A stretch of 64,000 bases of DNA from an uncultured Spirochaetota bacterium. Its GTDB lineage: Bacteria > Spirochaetota > Brevinematia > Brevinematales > JAOACQ01. The position numbers and the translations under genes are program-made. Shown in pieces: positions 30,052 to 40,257 of the stretch; positions within the stretch are counted from its first letter, which is position 1, and every line of letters begins with the position of its first letter. Below the pieces are notes generated by a model that did no database searches, was not told where the DNA came from, and was given only the letters and a program-made list of their open reading frames with translations. The stretch spans positions 192,001 to 256,000 of the forward strand of contig CAWAOD010000003.1 in the NCBI GenBank assembly GCA_963783575.1, read 5' to 3'.

Positions 30052-31836
30052 TCATTGAAGATCATTTTTTGTGACTTCGAATATAAGTGTCTTATCGGCA
30101 ATCTGCCTGAGGCTTCTATTACTGCTGCCGCGGGGAATTATCCAGCAGACAGCCCGTTTGCCTTCATAATAATTCATTGCTGAAGAAAGAACTTTTCGCA
30201 AAGAGTAAGGCTTATTTGAAACAATATTAATCACTATCATCAACCAGTTCTCCGAATAATGGCTTATGTTTGAACCCTGCTTTAAAAGTTGCGTTACTGA
30301 AGGACCGGCTGTCTTTTTCTTGGCATGCCCGAAATCCGGAGCTTCGGTATTGCCCATAGGATCTAACCCGGACGCGCGGCAAAAATCAATAGAAGCCCAC
30401 TTAGCGACTGATTCCGATGAAGAAATTTTTGAATAATTGCAGTCGTACAAATCGATTATCAGTTCAAAAGCTTCGGAAAATCCTTCCTCTACAGGCAGTT
30501 TATAACCGGATGACAAAATTCTGGAACAGTCAGTAAGTTTCGGTTTGAATATTACATCAATGTCTTTTAATTTCTTCCCCAATAATTCCTCCTGGTAGAT
30601 ATAACAGCATTTCCTGATCTGCCGGAGGTCACTAAATGAACCGCGCGGTATATGCCAGCAGACAGCCGAATCCGCCCCAAAATAGCTTAAAGAATAAGCT
30701 GACGCATCTTCCACAGGCAAAGAGGCGCAGGTAAAGCAATTGGCGCTGCCGGTCGACCCATACTGCCGGTAATTGATAGCACTGGTTTCTATATATTGAA
30801 CCAGCGTTTCGCCCGGTCCGAAATTTGAATTCGATACAATAGGTTTACCGAAGGCTTTCATTTTTATAGCTTCGCAAGTCTCTTTACTCCATCTCGCCAC
30901 CTTATCCATTGCCGGAAATTTAGCATCCTTAAGATGAAGATCCATTATTATTTCTTCGCCGTATTTATCCTGTTCAAGCCTTCTCTGGAATTCCGGATAT
31001 ACCATGGTTGAAATATTCGGGGAATACCATCTTGTTTTAATTCCTGATTCCTTAAAGGCTTTTTTAGCATTCTGAGGTGCTCTTTTGAAAACTTTTCTGC
31101 CCTTTGATCCGGCTGTAAGGCTGAATGGCCCTCCGATATAGCTTGCGTTTGCGAATTGAACCACCCTTACATCATCAAAAGAACACTCTATCTGCCGCCA
31201 GCTTGCCGGACACTCAGAAGGCTGAAGTATCAGCGAACCTGTCTGATGTATTGCAATTCCCCCGTCTATAAGCGCGTTATAAACGCTCTGGTAAAAGTCC
31301 GTGCTGAACAGTGATTTTGCCGGACCTATAGGATCGGTTGAATCAATAATAACAACGTCGCAGGTTTCTTTCATTTTTCTTATCGCTTCGGCGCCGTCCC
31401 CGGTAATTACATGAAGCCTTTTATCATCCCAGATTCCTTCCGATACCGAAGGCATTAATTTCCTGCAGTAATCTATGACCATTTTATCAATTTCTACAAT
31501 CGTCACTGAATTTACCGATTTATGCTTCAAAACTTCCCTTGCAACTCCACCGTCACCACCGCCGATTATCAGGACTTTTTCGGCCGGTTTGAGCAGAGAA
31601 AAAAGCGGCCAGTGAGTAATCCATTCATGATAAATTCCTTCGTCTTCTTCTGTTAACTGGACGACTCCGTCAAGAATCAGGACACGCCCAAGCCTCTCCG
31701 TTTCAAGGATCATGATTTTCTGAAATCCCGTATCCGTTTCTGGTAAAAGAATTTTCGAAACTTTAAAGCCGTAAGTAATATCCGGATAGAGTTCTTCATA
31801 GAACCAAAATTCATTTTTTTGGTTGGTTAATCCCAT
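30052..31836 (-). CDS. speE: Spermidine synthase fused to two tandem AdoMet-decarboxylase-like domains
   Basis: LDGVVQ, YHE, LIIGGGDGG, VEID and DSTDPIGP in the first ~290 aa; duplicated C-terminal module ending AVCW(H/I)IPRG. Confidence 0.85.
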   Translation of the reverse strand: MGLTNQKNEFWFYEELYPDITYGFKVSKILLPETDTGFQKIMILETERLGRVLILDGVVQLTEEDEGIYHEWITHWPLFSLLKPAEKVLIIGGGDGGVAREVLKHKSVNSVTIVEIDKMVIDYCRKLMPSVSEGIWDDKRLHVITGDGAEAIRKMKETCDVVIIDSTDPIGPAKSLFSTDFYQSVYNALIDGGIAIHQTGSLILQPSECPASWRQIECSFDDVRVVQFANASYIGGPFSLTAGSKGRKVFKRAPQNAKKAFKESGIKTRWYSPNISTMVYPEFQRRLEQDKYGEEIIMDLHLKDAKFPAMDKVARWSKETCEAIKMKAFGKPIVSNSNFGPGETLVQYIETSAINYRQYGSTGSANCFTCASLPVEDASAYSLSYFGADSAVCWHIPRGSFSDLRQIRKCCYIYQEELLGKKLKDIDVIFKPKLTDCSRILSSGYKLPVEEGFSEAFELIIDLYDCNYSKISSSESVAKWASIDFCRASGLDPMGNTEAPDFGHAKKKTAGPSVTQLLKQGSNISHYSENWLMIVINIVSNKPYSLRKVLSSAMNYYEGKRAVCWIIPRGSSNRSLRQIADKTLIFEVTKNDLQ

Positions 31837-32074
31837 TTTATTTTCCTCTTAATAAACAAATGAATATATTGACCTGAAATTATCTTTTTAATATTAATAA
31901 TTAGTTAATAACTCAACAATCCCTTGCATTGGCTGGTTGATAGCAGCCAGAGACCAGCAGCTCACCGCTAATTTTATGCCGGAAGTGATTTTATTACAGG
32001 CATTTAAAAATGTCAAATGAATAGGCTATACAGGGAAAATAATCATAAATTGATTATAAAATTATTGTAATGAT

Positions 32075-35174: not shown

Positions 35175-36728
35175 GTGAAAATTTTATATTTAAATTATTT
35201 ATTAATCGCATTGTCTTTTCTGGGTTATGTTTCCTGTTCGGCAGGGGACCCTGATAAAATAACTCAGAGCCAAAGCAGGAACAATCCCAACGACCCGGGC
35301 GGCGGGAATTATTCGAGCGCCGCAGGTTCATCGACTGGTAATTCATCATCGATTAACGGCAGTTTGAGTGCGTCCAGTGCAGATATTTTGCCTAATGCGC
35401 CTGTAGTAAGCGGAACAAGCCCAACACTTAATAAAATGCCGACCTGGAACTGGGTTTCGGGCGGAGGTGGAAGCGGAACATACCGGTATAAACTGGACAG
35501 TTCCGATCTTACAGCAGGCGCAGTAGAAGCTGCAGCCGTAAGCTTTACTCCGGCATCAGCGCTTTCTCTGGATAATCATACCCTGTATGTTCAGGAACGT
35601 AATTCGTCCGGGAACTGGTCTGTAAGCGGCAATTATACCATCCTTATTTCGGATTGCATACCCGTTGGCTGGATCGGCGGTGGAAGTGACGGGTGGAAGA
35701 CCAATTCCGATCCTATAAGCGGTGGCGATTACCGGTCATTCAGGTATCCCGGTGATGTTTTTGTAGACAGCGCCGGAAATATCTATATATCTGATTCTAT
35801 AACCAATAGAATTTCAAAATGGGACTCAAGCGGAACAGCTTTAGGATGTATCGGCGGGGGAAGCGATGGATGGAAAACCGGAAATTCACCGATTTCTGCC
35901 GGAACAGATTTACGGAGTTTCAAGAATCCCGAGGGAGTTTTTGTCGACAATTCAGGAAATATATATGTCGCGGATTATAACAATCACAGGATCAGCAAAT
36001 GGGATTCTTCCGGAACAGCCTTAGGATGGATCGGCGGTGGATACGACGGATGGCAGACGGGAAGCGCTCCTGGCGCTGCGGGAAACTTTAAATATTTCAG
36101 CGGACCGTCATCAGTCTGTGTAGACGGATCTGGAAATATTTATGTTGTCGATTGCGGTTATGTAAGCAAGTGGAGTTCAAACGGCGTTGAAGTGGGCTGG
36201 ATAGGCGGGGGAAGCGACGGATGGCAGACAGGCATGCATCCGGGCACGAACACTGATTACAGGAGTTTCAGTTATGCCCATGGCATCTGCATTGACGGCT
36301 CGGGTAATCTGTATGTCACCGAGGATTATAACAACAGGATCAGCAAATGGGATTCTTCCGGAACTGCTTTGGGCTGGATTGGCGGTGGTAGCGACGGGTG
36401 GAAGCAGACAGACGGCGCAGTATCGAATGTTGATTACAGGAGCTTCAGGCTCCCGCGGGATGTTTCGGTGGATGCGGGGGGAAATATCTATGTCGCGGAC
36501 TGGTATAACAACAGGATCAGCAAATGGAATTCTTCCGGTACGGCCTTGGGCTGGATCGGCTATGGAAGCCCGGGGTGGAAAAAAAACGATATTCCTTCAA
36601 CATATTCCGGGACCATTAGGGATTATGATTTTTTTAATTACCCGATTGGCATATTTGTCTGGAATTCTACCAATATCTATATTGCCGAACAGAATAATTA
36701 CAGAATATCCAAATGGCAGCAGCCGTAG
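35175..36728 (+). CDS. AGDPD-tag lipoprotein 1: Ig-like domain + NHL-repeat beta-propeller
   Basis: GTG start after AGGAGG; VSCSAGDPDK tag; about 6 repeats of VDxxGNIYVAD.xN.RISKW..GWIGGG. Confidence 0.85.
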   Translation: MKILYLNYLLIALSFLGYVSCSAGDPDKITQSQSRNNPNDPGGGNYSSAAGSSTGNSSSINGSLSASSADILPNAPVVSGTSPTLNKMPTWNWVSGGGGSGTYRYKLDSSDLTAGAVEAAAVSFTPASALSLDNHTLYVQERNSSGNWSVSGNYTILISDCIPVGWIGGGSDGWKTNSDPISGGDYRSFRYPGDVFVDSAGNIYISDSITNRISKWDSSGTALGCIGGGSDGWKTGNSPISAGTDLRSFKNPEGVFVDNSGNIYVADYNNHRISKWDSSGTALGWIGGGYDGWQTGSAPGAAGNFKYFSGPSSVCVDGSGNIYVVDCGYVSKWSSNGVEVGWIGGGSDGWQTGMHPGTNTDYRSFSYAHGICIDGSGNLYVTEDYNNRISKWDSSGTALGWIGGGSDGWKQTDGAVSNVDYRSFRLPRDVSVDAGGNIYVADWYNNRISKWNSSGTALGWIGYGSPGWKKNDIPSTYSGTIRDYDFFNYPIGIFVWNSTNIYIAEQNNYRISKWQQP

Positions 36729-36745
36729 AAAAGAGGAGGAAGTTT

Positions 36746-38140
36746 GTGATAAGAATAAACTTTTATCTTTTATTAATCCTTGGTTTTACTTTCGTTTTGA
36801 TTTCCTGCGCCGCAGGCGACCCTGATAAAATATCACAAAGCAACAGCAGGAACAACCTCAACGACCCGAATGGAGGCAATTATTCCTCCGTTAGTTCCGT
36901 AACAAGTTTTTCATCTTCTTCCACGGGAGGTACAGTAAGTCCAACAGTCATTTCCGCAAGTCCGCAAAATAATGATCAGGGAGTCTGGATTTCACAAACA
37001 ATAAATATAACATTCTCTAAAACAATGAATAAAAATCTTACAACGAATGCGTTTTCTCTAAAAGACCCGGGGAATTTCAACATTGCCGGGACCTTTCAAT
37101 GGGTAAACAATGATCAGAATCTGGGGTTTACTCCATCCGGAACTCTTTCATATGATAAGGAATATACTATGACCATAGGAACAGGAGCGGAAGATATATC
37201 GGGTAATCCTTTGCCGGCAGCGTTTACAAGCAAATTTACAACCGGATGGGCTCAGGCGACGACAAACGGAGGATGGCCCGGAAGAACATTATCTACGTGC
37301 GTTTCATTTAAAAACAGCCTGTGGCTTTTGGGCGGCTTTTCCACTACAATTTCCAATAACGATGTCTGGTGCAGTTCCGATGGGGCAGACTGGAATCAGG
37401 CTATTGAAGTCGCGCCCTGGATTGGAAGACATTGGCATACAAGCGTTGTATTTGATAATAAGATATGGGTTATGGGCGGCTGTTGTATCAATGGAGATTG
37501 GACAAATGATGTCTGCTACAGTCCCGATGGAACAAACTGGTATCAGGCCACAGCCGCTGCCGGATGGAGCGGGAGAGAAGGACATACCAGCGTTGTATAT
37601 GACGGCGGTATGTGGGTCATTGGAGGCTTAGATACAACAGGCCATTATAAGTCAGATGTCTGGAATAGTGCCGATGGAACAAACTGGTTTCAAATTTCAC
37701 CATCTGCCGGATGGAGCGTGCGATACGACCATGCCAGCGTTGTTTTCAATAATGCGATATGGGTTATGGGCGGTTGTGACGGTAATTATATGAACGATGT
37801 CTGGTACAGTACCGACGGTGTTAACTGGAGCCAGGTTACGGCTTCAGCCCCCTGGTCAAAAAGATCGGGATTTTCAGCCGTAGTCGCCGGTCAGAAGATA
37901 TGGATTATGGGTGGTAACAACTCAACAACCGGTTATCAGACAGATGTTTGGTATAGTTCCGATGGAACAAACTGGATGCAAGCTATGGCTTCGACAGGAT
38001 GGGGAGGCAGGGAATGGCAAGTATGTACTGTGGATAAAATGTTCGTCAGTATTATTCAGTCGATTGACAGAATCTGGCTTATCGGCGGTTACCAAGACGG
38101 GCAGGGAAAGAAAAGCGATGCATGGTGGATACTACCGTAA
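36746..38140 (+). CDS. AGDPD-tag lipoprotein 2: bacterial Ig-like domain + Kelch-like repeats
   Basis: GTG at 36746 after GAGGAGG; ISCAAGDPDK tag; ITFSK.M..DISGNPL Ig-like domain; repeats of WVMGG..NDVW.S.DG.NW. Confidence 0.85.
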   Translation: MIRINFYLLLILGFTFVLISCAAGDPDKISQSNSRNNLNDPNGGNYSSVSSVTSFSSSSTGGTVSPTVISASPQNNDQGVWISQTINITFSKTMNKNLTTNAFSLKDPGNFNIAGTFQWVNNDQNLGFTPSGTLSYDKEYTMTIGTGAEDISGNPLPAAFTSKFTTGWAQATTNGGWPGRTLSTCVSFKNSLWLLGGFSTTISNNDVWCSSDGADWNQAIEVAPWIGRHWHTSVVFDNKIWVMGGCCINGDWTNDVCYSPDGTNWYQATAAAGWSGREGHTSVVYDGGMWVIGGLDTTGHYKSDVWNSADGTNWFQISPSAGWSVRYDHASVVFNNAIWVMGGCDGNYMNDVWYSTDGVNWSQVTASAPWSKRSGFSAVVAGQKIWIMGGNNSTTGYQTDVWYSSDGTNWMQAMASTGWGGREWQVCTVDKMFVSIIQSIDRIWLIGGYQDGQGKKSDAWWILP

Positions 38141-38168
38141 AATTTAATTTTAATTATCGGAGGCTCAT

Positions 38169-39251
38169 ATGAATTTAAAGTCATTAAAATATCCATTGAT
38201 TACGGCGATTTTGTTTATATTAACATCCTGCTCTGCGGGCGATCCCGATAAAATATCGCAAAGCAACAGCAGGAACAACCCTAACGACCAGAACGGAACT
38301 GCTTATTCCAGTATAAGCAGTTCTGCAGGTGTATCTTCATCTGCAGGTACATCTTCATCTGCAGGTGTATCTTCATCTACAGGCTCATCTTCAACTGCTA
38401 GTGCTTATACAGTGGGGGCAAACTGGACTCAGGCAACCGCTGCGGCGGGTTTCTCACCCCGCGGGGGGCATGCAAGCGTTGTTTTCAACAATGCCATGTG
38501 GGTAATCGGCGGATTTGATTCTTCAAACATATATAATGATGTGTGGTATTCCAAAAACGGCACAAACTGGACTCAGGCAACTCAAAACGCGGGGTTCAGT
38601 ATACGGGATTCATTCAGTTGTCTGGTTTTTAAAGGCAGCATGTGGGTGATCGGCGGAAGATCCTACACTTATACAAACGATATCTGGTATTCAAGGGATG
38701 GGACAAACTGGAGCCTGGCGACGGCCGCTGCCGCATTCTGCCCGCGTGGCAGTTTTGCCGGCGTGGTCTATAACAATATGATGTGGGTAATTGCCGGAGG
38801 ATATTCTCTAAGTGGAGAAACCAATGATGTCTGGTATTCAAGCGACGGGACAAACTGGTCAAGAGCGACGGCAGGGGCTTCGTTCTCCACGCGTAAGGAA
38901 GCCGTGTGTCTGACTAATAACAATTTGATGTGGCTGATCGGAGGGAGTATAAATGGCGAGGCATGGTATTCAAGCGACGGCATCAACTGGGCCTGTTCAA
39001 CCGCAAATGCTCCATATTCATACAGATTCGAACATTCAAGTGTGGTTTACGACAACAAAATGTGGGTAATATGCGGCATCAACGTTTCCGGAATATACTA
39101 TTCAGGCAACGGCACGAACTGGACCCTGGCGGGTAACCCGGAAATAACCAATAAATACGGACATACGACATTGGTTTATAACAATGCCATGTGGACGATT
39201 GCCGGTTATAACGAAAACGGAAGCACTAATGATGTATGGTATGCGCAGTAA
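38169..39251 (+). CDS. AGDPD-tag lipoprotein 3: Kelch-like repeat propeller
   Basis: TSCSAGDPDK tag; repeats of MWVIGG..NDVWYS.DGTNW. Confidence 0.85.
   Translation: MNLKSLKYPLITAILFILTSCSAGDPDKISQSNSRNNPNDQNGTAYSSISSSAGVSSSAGTSSSAGVSSSTGSSSTASAYTVGANWTQATAAAGFSPRGGHASVVFNNAMWVIGGFDSSNIYNDVWYSKNGTNWTQATQNAGFSIRDSFSCLVFKGSMWVIGGRSYTYTNDIWYSRDGTNWSLATAAAAFCPRGSFAGVVYNNMMWVIAGGYSLSGETNDVWYSSDGTNWSRATAGASFSTRKEAVCLTNNNLMWLIGGSINGEAWYSSDGINWACSTANAPYSYRFEHSSVVYDNKMWVICGINVSGIYYSGNGTNWTLAGNPEITNKYGHTTLVYNNAMWTIAGYNENGSTNDVWYAQ
38322..38393 (+). repeat. 4 x 18-bp tandem repeat encoding a Ser-rich linker
   Basis: TCTGCAGGTGTATCTTCA-like units (SAGVSS). Confidence 0.8.
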
Positions 39252-39297
39252 AGATATCAATAAAATATATGTTTCAATTGAAAATCAGGAGGAACAT

Positions 39298-40257
39298 ATG
39301 ACGATAAAGATACATATAATTTTACTATTACTAGGTTTTCTGCTATTTACGCTTTCCTGCGCCGCGGGCGATCCCGACAAAATATCTCAGAGCAACAGCA
39401 GGAACAATCATAACGATCCTAACGGAACCGCTTATTCCAGTGCTGTCAGTACATCGAGCGCTTCCAGTTCATCGGCGGGCAATTCATCTTCCAGCGCAAG
39501 CTCAAGTTCTTTTAACCCGCAGAATTTGCATGTCATAAAGACAGTAGATACAGGCGACGAAGCCTCCGGGGTTTGTGTCAGCGGGAATTATGCTTATATG
39601 GCCGATACCGGCGGGCTTAGGATTATTGATATAACCAGCCTGGCCGGCGCCTCACTTACAAATACTGTAGCTATAAGCGGCTATGCTCAGGGAGTCGCTG
39701 TCAGCGGGAATTATGCCTATGTGACCACATACAGCAGCGGGGTTCAGATCATAGACATATCAAGCCCGGCAAGCGCTTCTATTATTAAAACTGTTAATAC
39801 AGGCTATTCTTATGGAGTCGCTGTAAACGGGAATTATGCTTACGTGGCCGGTAATAACGGGCTTCTGATTATAGACATATCAAGCCCGGCAAGCGCTTCT
39901 ATTATTAAAACTGTTAATACAGGCGGTTCGATGGATGTCGCTGTCAGCGGAAATTACGCTTATGTGGCTGATGAAAGCGAGTTTCGTGTTATAGATATAT
40001 CAAACCCGACCAATGCTTCTATTTTAAAGACAATAAGTACAATGAGTATTGGTGGTGGAATTTATGTCAGCGGAAATTATGCGTATATGGCTGCCGGAGA
40101 TGCAGGCCTGTATGTTATGGATATATCAAGCCCTGCCAATGCTTCTATTTTAAAAGTAGTTGATACAAGTATAAGCGGCGGCTCTATTAAAGTCACTGTA
40201 AGCGGGAATTATGTTTTTGTGACTGGTTTTAGCGGGTTTGAGGTAATCGGGCAATGA
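39298..40257 (+). CDS. AGDPD-tag lipoprotein 4: LVIVD-repeat protein
   Basis: ATG at 39298 after AGGAGG; LSCAAGDPDK tag; repeats of VSGNYAYVA...GL.IIDIS.P; identical 54-bp DNA repeat at 39751 and 39871. Confidence 0.85.
   Translation: MTIKIHIILLLLGFLLFTLSCAAGDPDKISQSNSRNNHNDPNGTAYSSAVSTSSASSSSAGNSSSSASSSSFNPQNLHVIKTVDTGDEASGVCVSGNYAYMADTGGLRIIDITSLAGASLTNTVAISGYAQGVAVSGNYAYVTTYSSGVQIIDISSPASASIIKTVNTGYSYGVAVNGNYAYVAGNNGLLIIDISSPASASIIKTVNTGGSMDVAVSGNYAYVADESEFRVIDISNPTNASILKTISTMSIGGGIYVSGNYAYMAAGDAGLYVMDISSPANASILKVVDTSISGGSIKVTVSGNYVFVTGFSGFEVIGQ

Follow-up and report, generated by a model that had tools for sequence, protein, structure and literature searches.

A spermidine synthase fused to a duplicated SpeDC-type module: a predicted single-chain ornithine decarboxylase-spermidine synthase with a divided active site

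The fusion gene and its divided active site

The stretch analysed here (the window) comprises 64,000 nucleotides of contig CAWAOD010000003.1 (positions 192,001 to 256,000; assembly GCA_963783575.1) from an uncultured spirochaete of the order Brevinematales. It encodes on the minus strand, at 30052..31836, a protein of 594 residues, delimited from the open reading frame (ORF) list and from homologs, in which a SpeE domain is followed by a first module, a linker and a second module. An earlier note, made from the letters alone, had read the gene as a bacterial SpeE-SpeD-SpeD' fusion, i.e., a spermidine synthase joined to a tandem-duplicated S-adenosylmethionine decarboxylase (AdoMetDC, SpeD) with one composite active site. 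A Shine-Dalgarno-like AGAGG, read from the sequence, lies 8 bases ahead of the ATG on the same strand (31845..31849).

A protein search yielded 353 matches, and our figures on homologs rest on the best 120 of these 353. They are full-length, 60-75% identical across 98-100% of their length, and those that are named are annotated solely as spermidine synthase or polyamine aminopropyltransferase. The SpeE domain (residues 1-288; 30973..31836, minus strand) has intact YHE, GGGDGG, EID, DG and DSTDP motifs. It matched the PRK00811 aminopropyltransferase profile over residues 7-282 with 288.6 bits, above the cut-off of 260, and scored 244.8 with TIGR00417, slightly below the cut-off of 249.55. The closest solved structure in a PDB sequence search was the spermidine synthase 3o4f (E 5.5e-57), and residues Y69, H70, E71, D95, E115, D117, D147, D165 and D168, aligned to it, are invariant in 40/40 homologs. 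We take the YHE, GGGD, EID, DG and D-S-T-D-P motifs to have their roles in binding decarboxylated S-adenosylmethionine (dcAdoMet) and the amine.

Behind the SpeE domain lie, on the minus strand, module 1 (residues 292-415; 30592..30963), the linker (residues 416-455; 30472..30591) and module 2 (residues 456-594; 30055..30471). We aligned this region with that of 118 full-length homologs and one fragment, excluding the paralog P0014 (alignment A3, 120 rows, the basis of all counts out of 120). Mean identity is 27% in the linker versus 58% and 61% in the modules. The two modules are identical at 31/130 positions (24%; BLAST E 6e-8), and their Smith-Waterman score of 84 lies eleven standard deviations above the mean of 1000 shuffles (28.6 +/- 5.0, maximum 59), which rules out a chance likeness. 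Module 1 contains EIIMDLH (residue 295), VQYIETS (346), FTC (368) and AVCWHIPRG (391), module 2 ELIIDLY (458), GPS (511), ISH (524) and AVCWIIPRG (562), and LRQI occurs in both (404 and 576).

The catalytic residues are partitioned between the modules. Module 1 has kept Q347, E350, T351, Ser352 and the FTC strand, and its FG loop and His are gone. Ser352 (30781..30783), the predicted site of self-cleavage and pyruvoyl formation (T351|S352), and Cys370 (30727..30729), the equivalent of Thermotoga maritima Cys83, were found in 120/120 rows. Where a His is expected by count, five residues past Ser352, there is an invariant Arg (120/120); MAFFT places Asn355 in the His column. Residues 355-358 are Asn/Ser, Tyr/Phe/Leu, Arg and Arg/Gln, with one His at 358. 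Module 2 has kept Ser513 (30298..30300), which belongs to the GxS motif and precedes the cleavage position by eight residues, and His526 (30259..30261), the equivalent of T. maritima His68, both in 120/120. Gly521 stands at its Ser position (120/120) and its Cys position varies (Arg in 57 rows, Gln in 17, Asn in 10, other residues in the rest), so that module 2 is predicted to be incapable of cleavage. It also has the PDFGH..KT loop (P500-T509; 30310..30339), in which F502, G503, H504, K506, K507, K508 and T509 are each present in 120/120; by its conservation, this is likely the substrate-side loop of a shared site. All these codons lie on the minus strand. We take T. maritima Ser55 and human Ser229 to be the counterparts of Ser513. 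Class 1 AdoMetDC is a homodimer in which the His and the second Ser are supplied by the partner protomer. The essential residues of T. maritima SpeD are S63, H68 and C83 (PMC10407285); a bona fide SpeD has the equivalents of all three in one domain, and here they are divided between the two modules.

These results agree with the earlier note in what it had described: a complete N-terminal spermidine synthase domain, two homologous C-terminal modules, a pyruvoyl-type Ser and FTC without the His in the first, GPS and SH without ETS and Cys in the second, and every motif it had quoted.

The AlphaFold2 model of residues 289-594 has a predicted local distance difference test score (pLDDT) of 94.4 and a predicted template modelling score of 0.93, and its best fold matches are AdoMetDCs. 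Model residues 4-306, spanning both halves, aligned with the human proenzyme 1jl0 (Z 17.6, root mean square deviation [rmsd] 3.4, 231 aligned residues, 8% identity), and one module overlays T. maritima SpeD (Z 14.2, rmsd 2.2). Both modules are thus predicted to have the AdoMetDC fold, as the earlier note had supposed. Processed human alpha chains align from model residue 65, which corresponds to chain residue 69; the ends of the aligned ranges would therefore place model residue 64, i.e., Ser352, on human Ser68. A PDB search found no SpeDC structure, SpeDC being the related ornithine decarboxylase introduced below, and AdoMetDCs are therefore the expected nearest fold. Among profiles, Pfam AdoMet_dc matched residues 306-399 weakly (E 1e-5; 26.3 versus 25 bits), and residues 289-594 matched no NCBIfam family, TIGR03330 included, at E <= 1. 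At the same threshold the fusion did not match PF01536, the class 2 AdoMetDC profile, and sequence searches of the C-terminal region against the PDB gave no match.

Descent, distribution and genome context

Class 1b AdoMetDC gave rise to SpeDC, a pyruvoyl L-ornithine decarboxylase (Li, Liang, Phillips and Michael, 2023; PMC10407285), for which kcat/Km values of 1e2-1e3 per M per s are reported. Searching exhaustively with the C-terminal region (57 matches), and then in a follow-up, we identified SpeE fusions with a single module, 418-469 residues long, which have Ser, His and Cys in the same module. We built a quick tree of 79 rows, among them 15 tandem proteins, 11 single fusions, 32 stand-alone SpeDC-like proteins and 6 class 1b SpeDs (one empty row was dropped). 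The SpeDC-like set was identified by motif, assayed proteins not being among the rows; by eye, it has the QLIETS...HF...Y..FSC pattern common to the assayed ornithine decarboxylase domains in Fig. S5 of PMC10407285. Module 1 and module 2 each formed a clade (Shimodaira-Hasegawa-like approximate likelihood ratio test [SH-aLRT] 100) and grouped with the single-module fusions P0127, P0222 and P0231 (SH-aLRT 94) within the SpeDC-like set, from which class 1b SpeD was separate (SH-aLRT 94). Modules 1 and 2 are 39% and 39% identical to P0127, 21% and 16% to class 1b SpeD, and 24% to each other. Metagenome loci supply the corresponding gene arrangements: speD-speE-speDC in a row (L180), adjacent speE-speDC (L172 and L212) and single-module fusions (L161 and L168, the latter with class 1b speD directly after).

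Together, the tree grouping, the identities and the precursor loci indicate that the fusion arose by internal duplication of one SpeDC-type module, and that it is neither a SpeD+SpeDC fusion nor a class 2 relative; the tree and the module identities ruled out a hetero-fusion as in Victivallis. Adjacent speE and speDC genes would have fused, the SpeDC module would then have duplicated within the gene, and the copies would have divided the catalytic residues. At least 8 out of 10 single-module fusions agree at 40 columns. In 27 tandem proteins, module 1 alone retains 13 of these columns, module 2 alone retains 14, both modules retain 6 and neither retains the other 7. As to why duplication occurred, we may speculate that a tethered single module needs a partner via the SpeE oligomer, and that a doubled module completes the site within the chain. 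Other two-domain SpeD-fold proteins, P0171 and P0175 (321-350 residues), appear by eye to have a degraded first and an intact second domain, the reverse of the class 2 order.

A scan of species-representative genomes gave 56 fusion loci, with 57 confirmed among 102 pattern matches. They are titled mostly Aminicenantes, Acidobacteria or Chrysiogenales, and the closest (70-80%) Brevinematales or Spirochaetota. In the family of the window's genome (f1), the fusion is present in 8/12 genomes. Our set of carriers comprises 55 genomes (56 searched, one a duplicate), these 8 and 47 others. The window's own genome has a second copy outside the window, P0014 (G000:C9:516303-518045; 68% identical), in which the first dozen codons lie out of frame with the rest and the six residues before the Cys (equivalents of 364-369) are missing; this copy appears to be decaying or mis-assembled. 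Two genes upstream of it, an ORF resembles methylthioribose-1-phosphate isomerase by its motif. Genome G011 (C2, C5, C6) has two intact fusion copies of equal score and a third frameshifted at the SpeE-module junction, possibly by an assembly error.

The step missing in carriers is putrescine supply. SpeA is absent from all carriers (0/55) and present in 4/4 f1 genomes without the fusion; the fusion occurs where SpeA is absent. AguA was found in 0/55 carriers, and full-length arginase-family matches in 6/55 and in 0/8 of those of f1. Alanine-racemase-fold (PF02784) matches are present in 21/55 carriers; LysA was the best match in all 22 of the 28 places scanned, 14/22 of them above the LysA cut-off, including all 8 from f1. 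Ornithine carbamoyltransferase is present in 5/5 carriers tested. Carriers have the genome context of SpeDC, that is, no canonical arginine or ornithine decarboxylase and a separate SpeD or CASDH/CASDC, the exceptions being PF01276 matches in 2/55 and PF01862 in 1/55. CASDC, which requires a diamine, is encoded in 11/12 f1 genomes and 7/8 f1 carriers, and in one of them (G001) casdc (C12:782-1867) lies directly upstream of the fusion (C12:3236-5017). The fusion is the sole PF01564 match in f1 genomes. In the window's genome, casdc and an adjacent CASDH-like gene, whose dehydrogenase was named by eye (G000:C9:198835-201182), make up a second, AdoMet-independent spermidine route.

A separate AdoMetDC candidate, the potential source of dcAdoMet, was found in 54/55 carriers, in three types that never overlap. 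Class 1a SpeD is present in 7/7 other f1 carriers and 0/4 f1 genomes without the fusion. Class 1b SpeD occurs in 17 of the 47 carriers outside f1; the stand-alone SpeD scores 129.7 with TIGR03330, over 75.65. The remaining 30 of these 47 non-spirochaete carriers, exactly those without class 1b SpeD, encode a 407-residue class 2-like protein, in one case cut by the contig end, in one in two pieces and in one without its first 56 residues. This protein is unannotated at L126:664-1884 (plus strand), and its 41 homologs (P0177-P0217) are mostly named hypothetical. It matched PF01536 weakly in 5/5 tested, its first half contains E-S-H and T-C-G motifs, and its model aligned with the human AdoMetDC proenzyme (Z 16.7, rmsd 3.8, 277 aligned residues); we regard it as a candidate bacterial class 2-like AdoMetDC. 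These PF01536 matches, and then the protein itself in 30/30, overturned an argument for AdoMetDC activity of the fusion based on the 30 carriers without a PF02675 match.

In Aminicenantales loci L067-L078 and L085-L087, class 1b speD adjoins an Lrp-type regulator and a glutamine synthetase-type gene whose product scored above the GlnA cut-off and below that of the gamma-glutamylputrescine synthetase model.

Proposed activity, alternatives and surroundings of the gene

Position 530, which we take to correspond to the ribose-binding Glu of AdoMetDC, is Asn in 120/120 rows. The Pro after the His strand is completely conserved in bona fide AdoMetDC (PMC10407285), and it is absent from 120/120 of the fusions, the position assigned to it from the H-x-W-P-E pattern (529) being V, I, M, E, A or T. 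The branch with diagnostic Gln, Thr, Phe and Tyr residues decarboxylates ornithine (Li et al., 2023; PMC10407285). Of these, the Gln and Thr before the cleavage Ser are present (Q347 in 119/120, T351 in 120/120), as is Q516 in module 2 (119/120).

We propose that the protein is a bifunctional ornithine decarboxylase and spermidine synthase with a single composite decarboxylase site, born of internal duplication and convergent on class 2 AdoMetDC, not its ancestor, and we put the probability of this reading at about 0.7. The proenzyme would cleave itself once, at Thr351|Ser352, into parts of about 351 and 243 residues with one pyruvoyl group. By sheet-to-sheet packing, the two modules would form a single-chain pseudo-dimer with one working site, to which module 1 would contribute Ser352 and Cys370 and module 2 the F502 loop together with Ser513 and His526; the symmetry-related site would be dead. 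The composite site would decarboxylate L-ornithine, and the attached SpeE domain would use the resulting putrescine, together with dcAdoMet from the separately encoded AdoMetDC, to make spermidine; putrescine might conceivably be channelled between the two. In Brevinematales, putrescine from the fusion may also supply CASDH/CASDC.

Several observations weigh against this reading. The diagnostic Phe position after the His is Tyr527 in 114/120 and Phe in 6/120, and the diagnostic Tyr is not kept: V535 of module 2 is V/L/M, and the window's module 1 has Ser364 there, the nearest single-module fusion, P0127, retaining Tyr. We placed the diagnostic positions from the text and Fig. S5 of PMC10407285. 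As described in the same paper, the SpeDC clade includes one arginine decarboxylase, from pelagiphage HTVC201P, and one enzyme active on both ornithine and arginine; our phage search for assayed SpeDC sequences returned solely distant Sinorhizobium phage matches. The ornithine activity of tandem and single-module fusions is a prediction with no assayed member in print among the literature searched. The tree was made by a quick method from 142 columns without bootstrap, and the 55 genomes represent two or three related lineages, not independent ones, so that their counts are a pattern rather than a statistic. The alanine-racemase-fold matches below the LysA cut-off (8/22) all come from outside f1, and the PF02784 search was not exhaustive, having missed CASDC genes detected by TIGR01047. 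Finally, the 407-residue AdoMetDC is itself only predicted, from a model with a pLDDT of 66, and we found no other SpeD in the window's own genome, whose assembly is 89.85% complete.

This last point would fit AdoMetDC activity of the tandem unit, feeding dcAdoMet to the fused SpeE as in the earlier note's SpeE-SpeD-SpeD'. The weak Pfam match, the AdoMetDC fold matches and the active AdoMetDC of published SpeD-SpeE fusions (PMC11107197, PMC12803844) speak for it too, and we nonetheless consider it highly improbable. The conserved Pro is absent and Asn530 is invariant; TIGR03330 did not match and the modules descend from the SpeDC branch; carriers lack SpeA and nearly all encode another AdoMetDC candidate; and AdoMetDC fold matches are expected anyway, given that no SpeDC structure was found. 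We dropped the argument from the missing SpeD, as f1 relatives have class 1a SpeD and the window's assembly has no close match to their rpoD, dnaG or nadD. These missing matches show real assembly gaps; in five of the six f1 loci retrieved, speD is flanked by rpoD and dnaG. Thus, the tandem duplication, the reciprocal residue loss and the class 2-like layout of the original proposal stand, and the identification of the unit as SpeD is not supported: both modules fall in the SpeDC branch, in carriers that hold a separate AdoMetDC candidate and lack the usual putrescine sources.

Arginine decarboxylation, with SpeE aminopropylating agmatine (the N1-aminopropylagmatine route), would account for the replacement of SpeA in f1. 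With few arginase-family matches and no AguA, however, agmatine or aminopropylagmatine has no evident path to putrescine or spermidine, and CASDC in f1 requires a diamine. We find this alternative very unlikely, even though the SpeDC clade includes an arginine decarboxylase (PMC10407285) and N1-aminopropylagmatine synthase is a known aminopropyltransferase activity (PMC11107197). The shared site may also have moved to another amino acid (lysine or 2,4-diaminobutyrate), or it may be processed and mainly structural or regulatory, the diamine being imported. Its departures from canonical SpeDC (Asn530, Trp531, the HAKKK loop and the absent diagnostic Tyr) fit such a change, and human spermine synthase has an inactive, structural AdoMetDC-like domain (PMC12803844). 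It is unlikely, since the four catalytic positions are invariant in the exact complementary pattern for one working site and SpeA loss tracks the fusion; in addition, no SpeD homolog assayed in PMC10407285 acted on lysine.

If ornithine is indeed the substrate, Aminicenantes and some Brevinematales have a complete polyamine pathway without any pyridoxal 5'-phosphate (PLP)-dependent decarboxylase, and in 30/55 carriers both pyruvoyl decarboxylases of one pathway would be pseudo-dimers. The annotation of the homologs, which databases name after the aminopropyltransferase only, would be corrected. The origin of eukaryotic AdoMetDC from a bacterial homodimer is unreadable from sequence because its halves are too diverged. 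The fusion family would be a replay of the class 2 step in a sister branch, and since its precursors are 39% identical to both halves, duplication and reciprocal loss are open to direct mutation tests and to comparison of single and doubled forms. We lean towards seeing here an independent and traceable bacterial origin of the "two halves, one site" layout, with the adjacent-gene, single-module and duplicated stages all extant, in a single-chain ornithine-to-spermidine enzyme that 30/55 carriers pair with a class 2-like AdoMetDC. The earlier note had left open whether the protein was convergent on class 2 or informative about class 2 origins; convergence is supported, the modules tracing to single SpeE-SpeDC fusions and PF01536 finding no match.

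The neighbours of the fusion gene in the window encode a lipoprotein-like ORF, a GGDEF protein, a Cys/Met PLP enzyme, a Usp protein and a LuxR regulator; no conserved polyamine operon was found among them or around the 56 loci. Scans for promoters and terminators gave results close to chance (11 versus 6.4 +/- 3.0). Elsewhere in the window, at 35175-40257 on the plus strand, four tandem lipoprotein-like genes have, by eye, a common N-terminal motif, C.AGDPDKI.QS.SRNN, ahead of Ser-rich linkers and differing repeat domains resembling beta-propellers.

Comparison with known systems

The fusion resembles SpeDC in its branch of descent, its Q-x-x-E-T-S cleavage motif, the separate SpeD, the absence of SpeA and SpeC and the company of speE or casdh/casdc. 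In contrast, SpeDC as described in PMC10407285 is either a stand-alone protein, 127-197 residues long in Table 1 of that paper, or a domain within a SpeD fusion, and has the full residue set in both forms, whereas the window's module is fused behind SpeE and doubled, neither copy being complete. The SpeD-SpeDC fusions of Desulfotignum, Ca. Omnitrophica and Victivallis vadensis (PMC10407285) likewise have two AdoMetDC-fold domains in one bacterial chain, the second of which cannot cleave in V. vadensis, and a bacterial two-domain fusion was proposed there, for this family, as a model of class 2 origin. However, those fusions combine two distinct paralogs and begin with a complete, bona fide SpeD domain that has a Ser, a His and a Cys of its own (Fig. 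S5 of PMC10407285). In the window, one SpeDC module was duplicated with reciprocal loss, module 1 is of SpeDC type without the His, the predicted activity is ornithine decarboxylation, and SpeE is part of the chain.

Green et al. 2011 reportedly lists many bacterial AdoMetDC-aminopropyltransferase fusions. Our full-text literature searches found no account of a doubled SpeDC module fused to SpeE, or of such a reciprocal split of one duplicated module, an earlier listing in Green et al. 2011 being possible. The fusions described from Pelagibacter and others also combine a decarboxylase fold and an aminopropyltransferase in one chain, but their decarboxylase is N-terminal, single and a true AdoMetDC (PMC11107197, PMC12803844), and the window's is C-terminal, doubled and of SpeDC type.

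The layout is that of class 2 AdoMetDC (human 1jl0 and 1msv, potato 1mhm, Trypanosoma brucei AdoMetDC/prozyme), with which the fusion shares the single-chain, two-half sandwich, as the alignment with 1jl0 illustrates. In class 2 enzymes, too, the cleavage site lies in the first half and the His in the second. Class 2 AdoMetDC is viewed as a fused duplicate (PMC5201418). Unlike the fusion, it has a different substrate, if our prediction is right, and the two differ in origin, that of the fusion lying in SpeE-SpeDC fusions; identity is 8-11%, with no PF01536 match. By the tests made, the fusion is like a class 2 pseudo-dimer in its layout and most likely SpeDC-like in its chemistry, and a full member of neither.

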